From assembly GCA_014729675.1 (NCBI GenBank), contig WJJM01000005.1:1-52488 (forward strand): a stretch of 52,488 nt of DNA, read 5' to 3'. The notes below the pieces were generated by a model. That model made no database searches. It saw only the letters and a program-made list of their open reading frames with translations, and was not told the origin of the DNA. The position numbers were made by a program, and so were the translations under genes. Positions 17,792 to 21,118 of the stretch are shown piece by piece. Within the stretch, counting starts at the first letter, position 1. Each line of letters opens with the position of its first letter. The DNA comes from Candidatus Woesearchaeota archaeon. Its GTDB lineage: Archaea; Nanobdellota; Nanobdellia; Woesearchaeales; WJKL01.

Positions 17792-18175
17792 TCAGTTTTT
17801 CCACACTCCATGTACGTTGCAGTATATTCTTGCTTTCAGATCTTCAGTATCAGCAAGGCAGCAGAATTCAGCCTCTGGCTTATCTCCCTGCTTCAGCCTC
17901 TTTCCCATAACAACCCCATCAGGCCTTATGAGCTGTATTAGGCTTATAAAATGCATTTCTTCCATCGGGTGAGGAACTTCTCCCACTTTTACTTTTATCC
18001 CTGATTCATTCTTTTCTATAACAGGAACATGTTTTTCCTGTCCTTGGTCCATTGTCTTTTCAGAAAGGATTTCCATGGGCTTTCCACAGCACACAATTTC
18101 TCCATCATGGGCTTCTATCACACTGATGACATTTCCGCATATACTGCATCTATAGAGTCCATCTTTTTCAGCCAT
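17792..18175 (-). CDS. dfx: Desulfoferrodoxin (superoxide reductase)
   Basis: YRCSICGN..CCGKPM, EKHVP, HPM..HFI, CNVHG; start MAEKD. Confidence 0.93.
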   Translation of the reverse strand: MAEKDGLYRCSICGNVISVIEAHDGEIVCCGKPMEILSEKTMDQGQEKHVPVIEKNESGIKVKVGEVPHPMEEMHFISLIQLIRPDGVVMGKRLKQGDKPEAEFCCLADTEDLKARIYCNVHGVWKN

Positions 18176-18176
18176 C

Positions 18177-18722
18177 TTAGTTGCACACTCCGCATCCTTC
18201 TTCAAAACACATACATTCAGGCTCATAATATTCTCTTGCATGCTTGCATGAAGGACATTTCTCAGGAGGCTCTTCTCCTTCGTGGATAAATCCGCATTTG
18301 CTGCATTTCCATCTTATAGGTTTTTCTCTCTTGAAAACTTCCCTTTTCTCTACCATCTCAAGAAGTTTTTCATACCTTTTTGCATGATGTGATTCTACTT
18401 CAGCTATTCTTCTAAACAACTCAGCAGCTTCTTTTTGCCCTTCTTCTTCAGCTTCTTTTGCAAACTGCGGATACATCTCCATAGTCTCATGGCTTTCCCC
18501 TTCAAGAGCAGCCTTAAGATTTGCCTTTGTATCGCCGATGCCCTTCAGAAGCTTAAACTCGTCCTTTGCATGCTGTTTCTCATTCTCAGCAGCTTCCTCA
18601 AATATTTTTGCTATATAATGATAGCCTTCTTTTCTAGCCACTTTTGCAAAGAAAGTATACTTGTTCCTTGCCTGGCTTTCCCCTGCAAATGCAGCTTTTA
18701 GATTTTCTTCAGTCTTTGTCAT
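18177..18722 (-). CDS. rbr: Rubrerythrin
   Basis: AFAGESQARNKY, ENEKQHA, EVESHH, WKCSKCG..CPSCKH. Confidence 0.95.
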   Translation of the reverse strand: MTKTEENLKAAFAGESQARNKYTFFAKVARKEGYHYIAKIFEEAAENEKQHAKDEFKLLKGIGDTKANLKAALEGESHETMEMYPQFAKEAEEEGQKEAAELFRRIAEVESHHAKRYEKLLEMVEKREVFKREKPIRWKCSKCGFIHEGEEPPEKCPSCKHAREYYEPECMCFEEGCGVCN

Positions 18723-18879: not shown

Positions 18880-19206
18880 TCATACATCTTTATCACTTTC
18901 AGCAAGGCAGATCAATATTGCTGTGTTTTCTTTTGCTTTCAGAGAATGCAAAGAATTTGCTGGCATAGATATAAATACTCCTTGCTTCATCTCAATCTTT
19001 TCACCCTCCAGATTAAATCTTCCTTTTCCTTTTAATACGACAACCACACCATCTTTTGAAGATGTATGCTCATCTATCTCAGTTCCTGCAGATAGACACA
19101 TCAGTGTATAGTCATAATTGTCTGCTTTTACAAGAACCTTGCTGAATATGCCTTTTTCAGGAAACTGCATCTCATCTTCAAGATCCTTAAACAATCCTTT
19201 TTTCAT
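18880..19206 (-). CDS. Cupin domain protein
   Basis: AGTEIDEHT, VLKGKG, MPANSLHSL. Confidence 0.88.
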   Translation of the reverse strand: MKKGLFKDLEDEMQFPEKGIFSKVLVKADNYDYTLMCLSAGTEIDEHTSSKDGVVVVLKGKGRFNLEGEKIEMKQGVFISMPANSLHSLKAKENTAILICLAESDKDV

Positions 19207-19244
19207 TTTTTATCTTTCTTTTTCTGGCATTTTCCGCATCCCAT
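19203..19244 (-). CDS. 13-aa CxxC peptide MGCGKCQKKKDKK
   Basis: Read from sequence; GGAGGG RBS 6 nt upstream; its TGA overlaps the cupin ATG (ATGA). Confidence 0.5.
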   Translation of the reverse strand: MGCGKCQKKKDKK

Positions 19245-19269
19245 GATTATCCCTCCTGTAATATTTAAT

Positions 19270-19310
19270 AAAAACCAGCTGCAGGGAAAAAGGGCAAAAA
19301 CCTGCAGCTG
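19270..19310 (-). terminator. Hairpin plus T-run, terminator/attenuator-like
   Basis: Perfect 11-bp stem CCAGCTGCAGG (19275-19285)/CCTGCAGCTGG (19300-19310) followed by a T-run on the minus strand. Confidence 0.6.
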
Positions 19311-19332
19311 GATTTTGAGGCGTTTTTAAACT

Positions 19333-19479
19333 TCAATTTCCATATAGATTAACCTTCCAAAGATCTTTTTCTATCTGCTCAACTATATTCTCATCTTCAA
19401 ACATCTCTTCTACTTTTCCGGTATTTGTTTTTCCTTCTTCCCAGCACTTTCCTGCATGGCAGGCAACTTTATTTATCAT
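19333..19479 (-). CDS. 48-aa micro-protein MINKVACHAGKCWEE...
   Basis: Read from sequence; GGAGGTGG RBS. Confidence 0.65.
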   Translation of the reverse strand: MINKVACHAGKCWEEGKTNTGKVEEMFEDENIVEQIEKDLWKVNLYGN

Positions 19480-19494
19480 AGTTTCCACCTCCAG

Positions 19495-19614
19495 TTATTT
19501 ATTCTTGAAATCCTTTGCTTTGCAAGATCCTTTTGCAGTCATAAATTTGCCATCTTCCCCATATACAAAAAATAAACTGCAGTTTCCGAACAATCTTTTC
19601 CCGTCCATACCCAT
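19495..19614 (-). CDS. 39-aa micro-protein MGMDGKRLFGNCSLFF...
   Basis: Read from sequence; TGATG overlap with the upstream ORF; may start at the second Met (19608). Confidence 0.5.
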   Translation of the reverse strand: MGMDGKRLFGNCSLFFVYGEDGKFMTAKGSCKAKDFKNK

Positions 19615-19700
19615 CACCTTATCTTTTGGCCAGACTCTTCAACCCCTTCAAGACCATGCTCGATATTTTCCCATATCTTTTCGGCTTTTTCAAGATCCAT
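19614..19700 (-). CDS. 28-aa micro-protein MDLEKAEKIWENIEHG...
   Basis: Read from sequence; overlaps both neighbouring ORFs. Confidence 0.45.
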   Translation of the reverse strand: MDLEKAEKIWENIEHGLEGVEESGQKIR

Positions 19701-19800
19701 TTTTATATACATATTTTTGAAAATGTTTCATGCAAAATCTTTCTAAAACAGCATCATTGATGCACCTTTCACCCATCTCAGTCTTTGCACAACATCTCAT
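19690..19800 (-). CDS. 36-aa C3H zinc-finger-like micro-protein MRCCAKTEMGERCINDAVLERFCMKH...
   Basis: Read from sequence; CxAxTxxGxRC-x9-CxxH pattern. Confidence 0.65.
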   Translation of the reverse strand: MRCCAKTEMGERCINDAVLERFCMKHFQKYVYKNGS

Positions 19801-19917
19801 ATTTTCCTTATCTATAAGATATACAATATCAGGAAGATATATAAATATAATTACTATAATTTATAAGTTATAATACATATAGACCTATAATAAAAAAGAA
19901 AAGCTTATATATTATCC

Positions 19918-20496
19918 ATGCATAACATATATAAAATGGTTAAAAAAACATTCTCAAAGATAGACGAATTCAAGAAAAAGACAAAGTTCAGTGACCACCT
20001 TAACTTAGACAAAAGAGACGACATGATATTGTCCCTTCTTCAGAAAGATCCACGTACATCCCAGGAAGAGATAGCAAAAGCTATAAAACTCTCCCAACCA
20101 TCGACCGGAGCAAGGATAAGAAAACTAAAGGAAAAAGGCATACTTTCCCACACAACAGGTATAAATTTCAACAAAGTAAACCTTCATCTTGCCAAGGTGG
20201 ATGTTTCAGCAAAGGATACGCAAGCAGTAATTGATGAATTCAGTGACTGCCCGCATTTTCTGAATGCATTAGTAACTTCAGGGAGGTTCAATGTCTGCCT
20301 TTTCTTCACAGGCGTCTCTCTTAAGCACATAGAAGGAATAGTCAATGAGCATCTAAGGGGGAACGAAAAGGTAAAAGAACTGGATCTTAGCATAGTGATC
20401 TCAACAGCAAAAGACATGATAATGCCTATGAACATAAATTACGATAATAAAGCACAGCTTTCATGTCCTCAGGATTGCAAGAACTGCCTGAATTAA
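19918..20496 (+). CDS. Lrp/AsnC family transcriptional regulator with a Cys-rich tail
   Basis: LDKRD..IL.LLQ.D.R.S..EIA...LSQPS...RI.KL..GI; C-terminal CPQDCKNC; start uncertain. Confidence 0.9.
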   Translation: MHNIYKMVKKTFSKIDEFKKKTKFSDHLNLDKRDDMILSLLQKDPRTSQEEIAKAIKLSQPSTGARIRKLKEKGILSHTTGINFNKVNLHLAKVDVSAKDTQAVIDEFSDCPHFLNALVTSGRFNVCLFFTGVSLKHIEGIVNEHLRGNEKVKELDLSIVISTAKDMIMPMNINYDNKAQLSCPQDCKNCLN

Positions 20497-20497
20497 T

Positions 20498-21118
20498 ATG
20501 AAATCTCTTATAGACGAGATAACAAGGATAAAGAAGACCAAAGTTAAGGATATTATAGATAAACGTATAAAAGAATTTAAGAGATTGAACAGCTCATCAG
20601 ACAGAAGATGGTTTTACGAACTTTGCTTCTGCCTTATGACAGCAAACTGGAAGGCTCAGGAAGGGATAGAGCTTCAGAAAGAGCTTTGCAAGGATGGCTT
20701 CTGCAACTGGTCTGAAAAAAGTCTTGCAAAACACCTTAAGAAAAGAGGCCACCGATTCTGGCCTCAAAGGGCAGAACGCATAGTCCTTGCAAGAAGATAC
20801 ACAGACAACATAAAGCAGATATTAAAAAAACAAGAAGACCCAAGACAATGGCTGGTAAAAAATATAAAGGGTCTTGGCTATAAAGAATCTTCTCATTTCC
20901 TGAGAAACGTAGGCTACACAGATTACGCTATACTTGACAGGCATATTCAAGATATCCTAAAAAAAGAAAAACTCCTTGAAGAATCAAAAACACTCACTCC
21001 AAAAAGATACCTAGAGACAGAAAGGGTTCTAAAAAAGATAGCACAAAAGACAAAACTCAACCAGGCAGAACTTGACCTTTATATATGGTACTTAAAGACA
21101 GGAAAAGTCCTCAAATAA
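20498..21118 (+). CDS. ogg: N-glycosylase/DNA lyase (archaeal 8-oxoguanine glycosylase)
   Basis: ELCFCLMTAN, GHRF, IKGLGYKESSHFLRNVG, AILDRH, LDLYIWY..TG.VLK. Confidence 0.93.
   Translation: MKSLIDEITRIKKTKVKDIIDKRIKEFKRLNSSSDRRWFYELCFCLMTANWKAQEGIELQKELCKDGFCNWSEKSLAKHLKKRGHRFWPQRAERIVLARRYTDNIKQILKKQEDPRQWLVKNIKGLGYKESSHFLRNVGYTDYAILDRHIQDILKKEKLLEESKTLTPKRYLETERVLKKIAQKTKLNQAELDLYIWYLKTGKVLK

Follow-up and report, generated by a model that had tools for sequence, protein, structure and literature searches.

A covarying RNA hairpin, small genes and a candidate Cys-rich leader ahead of the antioxidant genes of a woesearchaeal oxidative-stress cluster

The subject of this report is a gap of 598 nucleotides (nt; positions 19203-19800, minus strand) ahead of a cupin gene in a 52,488-nt stretch of DNA from a Candidatus Woesearchaeota archaeon (GenBank assembly GCA_014729675.1, 1.44 Mb in 72 contigs; contig WJJM01000005.1). 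The whole stretch is called the window, and its coordinates are used throughout. The gap is probably the promoter-proximal part of an oxidative-stress cluster, in which three microprotein genes, an RNA hairpin and a leader open reading frame (ORF) would precede the antioxidant enzymes. By its covariation, the hairpin is a member of an undescribed RNA family in stress operons. By its relatives, the fourth of five small ORFs is a real gene of a widespread family. Among the five frames we see three convincing genes (ORF1, ORF2, and ORF4), one plausible leader ORF (ORF5), and one doubtful frame (ORF3). Conservation in relatives, purifying selection, covariation, and gene context are observed and carry this reading.

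The five minus-strand frames, of 36, 28, 39, 48, and 13 amino acids (aa), had been described in an original prediction made from the sequence of the window alone, and all are present as claimed. The stop of ORF1 and the start of ORF2 overlap by 11 nt, the stop of ORF2 sits in a TGATG together with the start of ORF3, the ribosome-binding site (RBS) GGAGGTGG lies at 19492-19485, 5 nt ahead of the ATG of ORF4, and ORF5, led by GGAGGG, ends in an ATGA shared with the cupin start. These links hold as predicted, and so do the Cys patterns (C3, C13, C23, and H26 of ORF1, a Cys pair in ORF3, C-x4-C in ORF4, and CxxC in ORF5) and the hairpin of 11 base pairs (bp) with a T-run between ORF4 and ORF5. ATG-initiated ORFs of at least 13 aa cover 83% of the 598 nt. 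Dinucleotide shuffles yield 55% ± 15%, with the real value attained in 49 of 2000, and the tiling by itself is only moderately unusual. The feature goes beyond chance because it is conserved in relatives, not because of the tiling. The GC content and purine skew over 19150-19750 are like those of the flanking minus-strand genes, and only 19750-20049 drops to a GC content of 0.28.

The closest relative used here, G001, is a same-genus genome with 77% nucleotide identity. An unpublished genome, G005, is the source of the third genus in which ORF1 occurs, of one ORF2 sequence out of four, of one sequence of ORF4, and of one example of the hairpin. For gene context we compared 22 loci with an ORF4 homolog (the window, L002-L004, L015-L028, L030, L059, L061, and L063), leaving out L060 and L062 as near-duplicates, L029 as spurious, and L031 as a look-alike. 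The 22 loci are related to one another and are not independent samples.

The hairpin between ORF4 and ORF5

The hairpin (19273-19313, minus strand) has a perfect 11-bp stem, in which 19311-19301 pairs with 19285-19275, and a 15-nt U/C-rich loop. It is preceded by an A-run and followed directly by TTTTT. In G001, 11-12 perfect pairs are kept through two compensatory changes. In G009 and G005, stems of unrelated sequence follow ORF4. The fold z-scores in the four genomes are -3.2 (window), -4.2, -2.8, and -4.4. Across families the stem is variable and the loop, of 13-20 nt, is conserved as GG-UUU(U)..(C)ACCUCUUUU-CC.

Alignments of the hairpin made with MAFFT were dropped because the 3' arms were out of register, and a covariance model (CM) was seeded from four ungapped sequences and then used for alignment. 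The seed model matches 14 of the 22 ORF4 loci, 13 of them at E ≤ 0.01; CM matches reach E of about 1e-10. In a 20-sequence alignment without G005, 97.7% of the cells are paired, and ten of the 11 pairs carry double changes (75 cells, compared with 19.9 ± 3.8 in shuffles, none of 500 being as high). Slid controls of the same alignment pair 27-55% only. Although this alignment was shaped by the model, a plain search for hairpins had found the stems beforehand.

The element is rare within a genome. The genome of the window holds 603 hairpins of comparable size, only one of which is GC-rich with this type of loop, and it gives a single strong CM match, with the second at E = 0.5. The refined model at E ≤ 0.01 finds 27 places in 24 of 151 genomes of the order, one or two per genome. 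In a phylum-wide sample, 9 of 151 genomes match at E ≤ 0.001, and all nine are labelled as the same order. The 12 strongest places (E < 1e-8) comprise six oxidative-stress loci, three chaperone loci, one pdxS locus, and two of unclear context. In two of the six oxidative-stress places (G011 and G146), the hairpin lies right after a DUF1858 gene and ahead of a cupin gene. The chaperone places are after dnaK, between hsp20 and grpE, and between grpE and DUF3467/dnaK.

Hairpins with a CACCUCUUUU loop can be followed in individual operons, namely in chaperone operons (dnaK, grpE, hsp20, DUF3467, and dnaJ) and before pdxS, at L071 (G087), L072 (G055), L076 (G037 contig 15), and L074 (G048). At two further loci, L068 (G146) and L069 (G011), the operon opens with a membrane protein of 69-71 aa (…GYGMMG…WW…) and DUF1858, lacks ORF4, and has the hairpin directly after DUF1858. 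The cupin of L069 seems to be split into frames of 77 and 31 aa, by a frameshift or an assembly error.

Rfam 15 contains no family that matches the hairpin or the region at its gathering threshold; the best sub-threshold score is 23.6 bits, compared with 110 required, for LhrC (E = 0.42). The result lists of a literature search contain no description of this hairpin or of these genes. A simple terminator scan misses the hairpin because its loop is longer than 8 nt. The hairpin is, by covariation and loop conservation, a member of an undescribed RNA family, and its places suggest a post-transcriptional element shared by stress genes. The hairpin with a T-run of the original prediction is present in the window as described, but it is more than a terminator-like stem, being a covarying element with a conserved loop in stress operons.

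The 3' end of the 16S rRNA of this genome reads ...GGATCACCTCCTTA, because of which the loop consensus CACCUCUUUU resembles the anti-Shine-Dalgarno tail and is complementary to a GAGGUG-type RBS. The loop of the window (UUUUUGCCCUUUUUC) keeps a CCCU that, as read from the letters, could pair with the AGGG of the Shine-Dalgarno (SD) sequence of ORF5. The predicted minimum-energy fold of the window pairs a CCUC upstream of the hairpin with the SD of ORF5, and that of G001 does not.

Three observations speak against this reading. G001 and G005 have no T-run behind the stem. The window loop lacks the CACCUC core seen in most relatives. The weaker CM matches lie in mixed contexts, some inside ORFs and two before toxin-antitoxin pairs; these matches are probably false.

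The probable leader ORF and other accounts of the hairpin

ORF5 (19203-19244, minus strand) encodes the 13-aa peptide MGCGKCQKKKDKK with a CxxC. Its SD GGAGGG (19251-19256, minus strand) lies 6 nt ahead of the ATG and is complementary to the 3' end of the organism's own 16S rRNA. In G001, the corresponding ORF encodes the 14-aa MECRRCKRKRDKER; the CxxC is kept, the indel is in frame and one codon long, the ACAGGAG SD is conserved, and the ATGA overlap with cupin is the same. In G009, a 13-aa MCGCCGCKPKKKK follows the hairpin and a GGAGGAG SD, and lies 3 nt ahead of a gene for a 4Fe-4S protein. At the equivalent place in two other families, SD-led tiny ORFs encode MGCGCG (G019) and MCGDGCC (G048). 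A Cys-rich SD-led tiny ORF is thereby found in 5 of the 22 loci, in four lineages, with two Cys in 13 aa here and two to four in 6-14 aa in the four other loci.

Several points count against a functional leader. The tiny ORFs of G019 and G048 are not directly coupled to the next gene. Among the 505 SD-led ORFs of 5-20 codons in the genome of the window, 29 have at least two Cys, a chance background of 5.7%. ORF5 carries no codon-level signature: the ratio of nonsynonymous to synonymous substitution rates (omega) is 0.47 over 13 codons, and the differences at the three codon positions number 3/4/2. One Cys-rich tiny ORF could be due to chance; the recurrence is unlikely to be. In addition, cupin has no SD of its own, and therefore termination-reinitiation from ORF5 would be the simplest route to its translation. 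ORF5 is probably a functional leader ORF, and the predicted coupling of a 13-aa leader to cupin has gained support from the SD-led Cys-rich ORFs at the equivalent position in other lineages.

A comparable arrangement is known from mycobacteria. As described by Canestrari et al. (bioRxiv 10.1101/834739), polycysteine short ORFs are cysteine-responsive attenuators, in which ribosome pausing at Cys codons blocks RNA structures that otherwise sequester the RBS of the 3' gene. A very short Cys-rich ORF lies immediately upstream of operon genes in both cases, and here structured RNA and an SD-less gene coupled stop to start flank ORF5. The mycobacterial ORFs are leaderless and bacterial and control cysteine-metabolism genes, whereas ORF5 is SD-led and archaeal and precedes antioxidant genes. 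ORF5 has two separated Cys instead of a run, and the hairpin stands before the short ORF and not after it. The RBS-sequestering duplex is a feature of the mycobacterial system and would be hypothetical here.

The most serious alternative, which we regard as doubtful but a real possibility, is that the hairpin terminates a short ORF1-ORF4 transcript, that cupin, rubrerythrin, and superoxide reductase have a promoter of their own, and that ORF5 is a chance frame whose Cys codons are meaningless. It would explain why the stem in the window is followed by TTTTT and then by a TATA-like TTTATTAAAT, why an A-run ahead of the stem and a T-run behind it are seen in many members of the family, why ORF5 is without a codon-level selection signal, and why such frames turn up at the background rate given above. 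The likeness to bacterial-type intrinsic terminators and attenuators lies in the GC-rich stem and the T-run of the window and of many relatives. Archaeal termination relies on oligo-T rather than on hairpins. The U-tract is present in the window, G009, and several others and is absent in G001 and G005, where compensatory changes nevertheless keep the stem. The large loop, not the stem, is the conserved part, which a plain terminator does not need. With a single strong copy in the genome (one or two copies per genome in the order), the hairpin does not serve as the general terminator. The grpE start of G055 comes only 12 nt after the hairpin, leaving no room for a promoter. Finally, the SD of ORF5 is conserved, Cys-rich tiny ORFs recur at this spot in four lineages, and cupin is without its own SD.

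Alternatively, the hairpin could be the core of a small RNA, acting in trans or derived from a 3' untranslated region, whose C/U-rich loop pairs with the SDs of other mRNAs. We consider this distinctly improbable. Bacterial small RNAs of the RsaE/RoxS type pair through C-rich loops with the SDs of mRNAs. In its favour, this genome uses a GAGGUG SD to which the loop consensus is complementary, the one or two copies in each genome adjoin stress genes, and the closest Rfam resemblance, at chance level, is LhrC. On the other side, the hairpin always lies between co-directional genes and is never a free-standing unit with its own promoter, and the loop of the window has lost the CACCUC core. Our preferred account, for its part, draws on the genomes of uncultured organisms.

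The hairpin resembles SD-sequestering RNA thermometers in that an anti-SD-like U/C-rich sequence adjoins heat-shock and stress genes. ROSE and fourU thermometers have the SD inside the hairpin. Here, by contrast, the loop carries the anti-SD-like sequence, and the SD follows the very stable stem at a distance of 10-57 nt. We also considered the hairpin as a substrate mimic of Nob1, the nuclease of the 16S 3' end (PMC3326319), and set this aside as pure speculation.

The small genes ORF1 to ORF4

ORF4 (19333-19479, minus strand) encodes 48 aa with a C-x4-C (Cys7 and Cys12). A translated search at E ≤ 0.01 gives matches in 17 of the 301 order genomes (13 of the 223 of high quality), which represent 15 of 216 genera and include the genome of the window; one of the 17 matches, that in G177 (E = 0.0096), lies inside a 660-aa frame and was taken as spurious. 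A profile search of 5.8 billion proteins returns 65 clusters at E ≤ 0.001, of 43-96 aa and mostly 44-48 aa, all unnamed or "hypothetical". The organism names that come with ORF4 relatives are those of Candidatus Woesearchaeota/Pacearchaeota. The ORF4 of the window matches the family profile at E = 5.3e-17, being itself among the 18 sequences from which the profile was built, and 64 other clusters match. Compared with G001, omega is 0.18 in frame and 0.81 and 1.47 off frame, and the differences by codon position are 7/4/13. A GAGGTG-type SD ahead of ORF4 is conserved in four genomes. The alignments show an N-terminal x-C-x-x-G-K-C-x-E and a C-terminal N-I-V-x-Q-I-E-x-D-L helix. A metagenome scan for ORF4 relatives returns only five loci, all of the type in which ORF4 comes first.

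The gene context of ORF4 is consistent across the 22 loci. A Lrp/AsnC-type regulator gene is divergent from the ORF4 homolog in 18 of them, the window included, and at L026 a gene of the Fur/PerR family precedes ORF4 in its place. A gene for a redox-disulfide protein of the DUF1858 family lies directly upstream in 11 of the 22, with stop and start mostly overlapping or abutting. The genes that follow encode a peroxiredoxin, a rubrerythrin, a glutaredoxin together with the same cupin as here, a superoxide dismutase of the Fe/Mn type, or a 4Fe-4S protein. The family member is the first or second gene beside the divergent regulator, with antioxidant genes after it, and by this context ORF4 is a core member of an oxidative-stress regulon. 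On the evidence of its relatives, ORF4 is a real gene of a widespread family.

The structure of ORF4 was predicted with AlphaFold2 (AF2) from a 69-sequence alignment. The model has a beta-hairpin (residues 5-8 and 11-14) followed by helices 20-27 and 32-46, which are acidic, and puts Cys7 and Cys12 on facing strands. A Foldseek search of the PDB with the model gives no match at E ≤ 0.001 (best E = 6.2), and the ESM Atlas neighbours of ORF4 are at chance level (top score 0.86 and 127 shared features, LigD_N clusters). A ribbon-helix-helix DNA binder, which also has a beta strand before two helices, was rejected, given the acidic character, the lack of a Pfam hit, and the predicted hairpin. In the genome of the window, a 63-aa ORF (C6:23856-23933; L031 1411-1602) resembles the C-terminal helix of ORF4 (EDIVEDIERDIW, E = 0.0065) and is without both Cys; it may be a distant paralog.

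ORF1 (19690-19800, minus strand), the first cistron, encodes 36 aa with a C-x9-C-x9-C-x2-H knuckle and has no strong SD. Its start lies 30-40 nt past a conserved TATA-like block, as would suit a first cistron whose leader is short or absent. Homologs are found at the equivalent place in G009 (L003) and G005 (L004), where the chain ORF1, ORF2, ORF4 adjoins the divergent regulator with order and frame relation kept. M1, R2, C3, T7, G10, R12, C13, A17, V18, C23, M24, H26, F27, and K29 are invariant in all three. In frame, the proportion of synonymous differences (pS) exceeds that of nonsynonymous differences (pN) in all three pairs (pS/pN of 0.51/0.27, 0.78/0.34, and 0.83/0.30), with an excess at the third position. 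The shifted frames show no comparable excess of pS except for shift 1 between the window and G009 (0.40/0.30).

Outside these genomes, the C...C...C-x2-H theme also occurs in free-standing proteins of 37-52 aa of relatives. An ORF1 profile finds matches at E ≤ 0.05 in 35 of the 301 genomes, of which only that in the window is strong; the remainder are motif-level, and many are the N-terminal Cys/His finger of proteins of about 290-340 aa or small basic proteins. A search of a large database for ORF1 relatives returns only the G009 protein itself, annotated as hypothetical. The likeness to DUF5763 (PF19067), a family of about 39 residues, is that positions 4-28 of its profile align with all three ORF1 homologs, whose invariant C3, C13, C23, and H26 may be in register with it. 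The difference is in the scores, 13.5, 13.3, and 12.7 bits, which are far under the gathering cut-off of 26.3 bits (E = 0.05 for ORF1 of the window). A literature search found no paper mentioning DUF5763. ORF1 is also less basic than the 37-42-aa proteins of the CAAKTKAGKxC type in relatives. An ORF1-type motif is seen in a 52-aa protein (KCKAITKKTGRKCRLNATMDGYCIKHF) at L033 (G197 contig 201, 1483-1641), in a compact co-directional run of small ORFs that ends in a possibly virus-derived 445-aa ORF; given this setting, the CCCH knuckle may also occur in mobile elements.

ORF2 (19614-19700, minus strand) encodes 28 aa from the start at 19700, or 32 aa from the ATG at 19712, with the motif W-x2-I-x2-GLEG-x-E; Cys is absent. 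Its strong homologs in the 11 genomes of the taxonomic family number four; a fifth, weak match in G008 is part of a 201-aa frame. W10, I13, G16, L17, E18, G19, and E21 are invariant. Compared with G001, omega is 0.24 and the differences by codon position are 8/2/11. In-frame pS exceeds pN in six of six pairs, and the off-frame values for ORF1 and ORF2 are mostly without that pattern. ORF2 has its own SD in three genomes, of the GAGGTG type in G009 and G005 and AAGGTG in G001, and is kept in G001 without ORF1. A programmed +1 frameshift joining ORF1 and ORF2 was rejected on these two grounds.

ORF3 (19495-19614/19617, minus strand; 39/40 aa with a Cys pair) is doubtful, a genus-restricted frame that is either young or spurious. 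It is found only in the window and G001 (two of the 11 family genomes, the window's own counted), and ORF2 and ORF4 of G009 and G005 have no such segment between them. Compared with G001, omega is 0.45 without codon periodicity (7/9/11), two indels are in frame, a 1-nt indel alters the C-terminus, and the second Cys is lost. Paralogs of ORF1, ORF2, ORF3, and ORF5 in the same genome were sought with tblastn and blastn, and only self-hits and noise are among the matches listed.

Points of several kinds weaken the reading of these frames as microproteins with thiol or metal chemistry. ORF1 is cleanly deleted in the closest relative, G001, and is dispensable for that reason. Beyond three genomes, ORF1 has only weak motif-level matches, and ORF1 and ORF2 are found in only 3-4 of the 11 family genomes (78-92% complete). 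The AF2 model of ORF1, from a three-sequence alignment, has a predicted local distance difference test (pLDDT) score of 60.7, a low confidence that is too weak for its metal site to be judged; that of ORF4 has a pLDDT of 68, a moderate confidence. In a large subfamily of ORF4, both Cys are replaced by Val, which weakens a metal or redox role. For ORF4, a cross-strand contact, possibly a disulfide, fits the paired Cys-to-Val swap better than an indispensable metal site.

The homolog search with substitution rates proposed along with the original prediction finds ORF1, ORF2, and ORF4 conserved in frame and under purifying selection, as real small genes at the head of an oxidative-stress cluster would be; ORF3 does not share in this. 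The chain of five frames had been called a missed operon of metal- or redox-binding microproteins. ORF1, both versions of ORF2, and both versions of ORF3 are indeed absent from the public protein collection, but the exact 48-aa product of ORF4 of this contig is there as a hypothetical protein. The metal or redox idea does not extend to ORF2, which is without Cys, and for ORF4 it meets the Val-Val subfamily. In our judgement, ORF1 is probably a genuine CCCH zinc-knuckle-like microprotein and ORF2 a genuine 28-aa helical peptide, each restricted to this taxonomic family.

The frames could instead be frameshifted remains of one decayed gene, the refutation feared from the outset, with DUF1858 (PF08984, a small CxxC domain related to ScdA_N) as the natural candidate. 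DUF1858 is a Cys-bearing small protein of the same oxidative-stress clusters, and the slot that it holds directly upstream of ORF4 in half of the 22 loci is held here by ORF1 and ORF2. Relative to ORF1, the frame of ORF2 is +1 in every case, and its short W-E-x-[IL]-E-x-G stretch resembles the W-E-T-L-E-Q-G of DUF1858 (hhalign probability 36%, E = 3.7e-4 over 13 columns). We nevertheless regard decay as very improbable, since the relatives show something else. ORF1 is unlike DUF1858 (hhalign probability 0.2%) and has a different pattern, C-x9-C-x9-C-x2-H, which also occurs in the free-standing small proteins mentioned above, whereas ORF2 has no Cys. Neither matches the Pfam model of DUF1858 at E ≤ 1. 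Both frames are under purifying selection in three genera, and ORF2 has its own SD in three genomes and persists in G001 without ORF1. An intact DUF1858 gene is present elsewhere in the same genome (contig C64) and further down the same operon in G009. No longer or fused form of ORF4 is found among 7999 scored candidates, which is weak evidence on this point.

That the micro-ORFs are accidental, within a long structured 5' leader or some non-coding RNA, is extremely improbable. The modest excess of the tiling and the failure of gene callers to report ORFs 1-3 might suggest it, but third-position excess and pS > pN occur only in the proposed frames, start codons and SDs are conserved, ORF4 has 65 protein-level relatives of matching length, and no Rfam family matches the region.

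Further Cys-rich small ORFs are seen at L016/L060 (67 aa), L059 (33 aa), L019 1830-1952 (40 aa), L029 1381-1500 (39 aa), and L073 1308-1511 (67 aa). Among their sequences are ...KVCKVCGCKDGSCKCE..., MCSTKCCKENKGMCKHEK with a hydrophobic tail behind it, and ...CCHHCCGDVCTTKKKK. As in ORF5, a Cys cluster with a run of Lys after it is a recurring feature of these extra ORFs.

Neighbouring genes and proposed working of the cluster

Downstream of the gap on the minus strand lie the genes for a 108-aa cupin (18880-19206; Pfam Cupin_2, E = 4.6e-9), a rubrerythrin (18177-18722; Rubrerythrin, E = 1.8e-27; rubredoxin-like domain, E = 3.6e-13), and a desulfoferrodoxin-type superoxide reductase (17792-18241; Desulfoferrodox, E = 3.3e-20; N-terminal domain, E = 9.5e-13). 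A gene for a GH130 enzyme follows the superoxide reductase. On the other side, the AT-rich segment 19801-19917 (GC content 0.28) contains TATA-like blocks that are conserved in the window, G001, G009, and G005, as well as inverted repeats, and is a putative divergent promoter region. No tRNA gene and no Rfam family at gathering threshold is found across the window.

The Lrp/AsnC-type gene (19918-20496, plus strand; HTH_24, E = 6.5e-13; HTH_AsnC-type, E = 3.9e-11) is divergent from the gap and is likely the regulator of the cluster. Its C-terminus has a conserved C-x3-C-x2-C (...SCPQDCKNCLN in the window), with homologs in L003, L004, L060, and L069, and a further Cys lies in FxDCP[HYF]F. The four Cys could serve as a metal or Fe-S redox sensor; if so, a Lrp-family redox regulator would be unusual. 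A gene for 8-oxoguanine DNA glycosylase (20498-21118, plus strand; Ogg-HhH, E = 2e-63) starts 2 nt past the stop of the regulator, and the pair is also present in G001. Given the 2-nt spacing, the regulator is probably co-transcribed with this enzyme for the repair of oxidative DNA damage.

The gap and the enzyme genes may form one transcription unit, whose translation, metal or redox chemistry, and regulatory action would be as follows. The Lrp/AsnC-type regulator would control the divergent promoter. The 5' cistrons would give microproteins that act as thiol- or metal-based helpers of the antioxidant enzymes. The hairpin, which divides the microprotein cistrons from the enzyme cistrons, would act post-transcriptionally, either by attenuation or termination or by an anti-SD-like loop that masks a Shine-Dalgarno sequence, and would set the expressed amount of the downstream enzyme message. 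ORF5 would hand ribosomes to the cupin start through termination-reinitiation, and its Cys codons could make the hand-over sensitive to cysteine supply.

A bolder proposal, which on present evidence we think unlikely, is that the hairpin, with a loop mimicking the 3' end of 16S rRNA, and the Cys-rich mini-ORF together form a ribosome-operated switch for the stress operons of DPANN archaea, with the microproteins ORF1, ORF2, and ORF4 as its thiol or metal partners. The loop would compete with ribosomes for a Shine-Dalgarno sequence. By being translated, the Cys codons would signal the supply of thiol or cysteine and would gate re-initiation on the first antioxidant enzyme gene. If the switch is real, Archaea would have their first described case of attenuation through a leader peptide or an anti-SD sequence.

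The genomes of DPANN archaea are tiny, and the organisms, mostly anaerobic, have to survive exposure to oxygen. A widespread family of about 45 aa that is tied to a Lrp-type regulator and DUF1858 offers a handle on stress control in these organisms. The family-specific microproteins, overlooked by gene callers, would point to a hidden small-protein content of such genomes. The hairpin provides a candidate cis-regulatory RNA motif that oxidative-stress operons have in common with chaperone operons, and a Cys-rich leader ORF recurs next to it. Should RNA and leader work in the proposed way, ribosome-mediated attenuation would be extended to Archaea.

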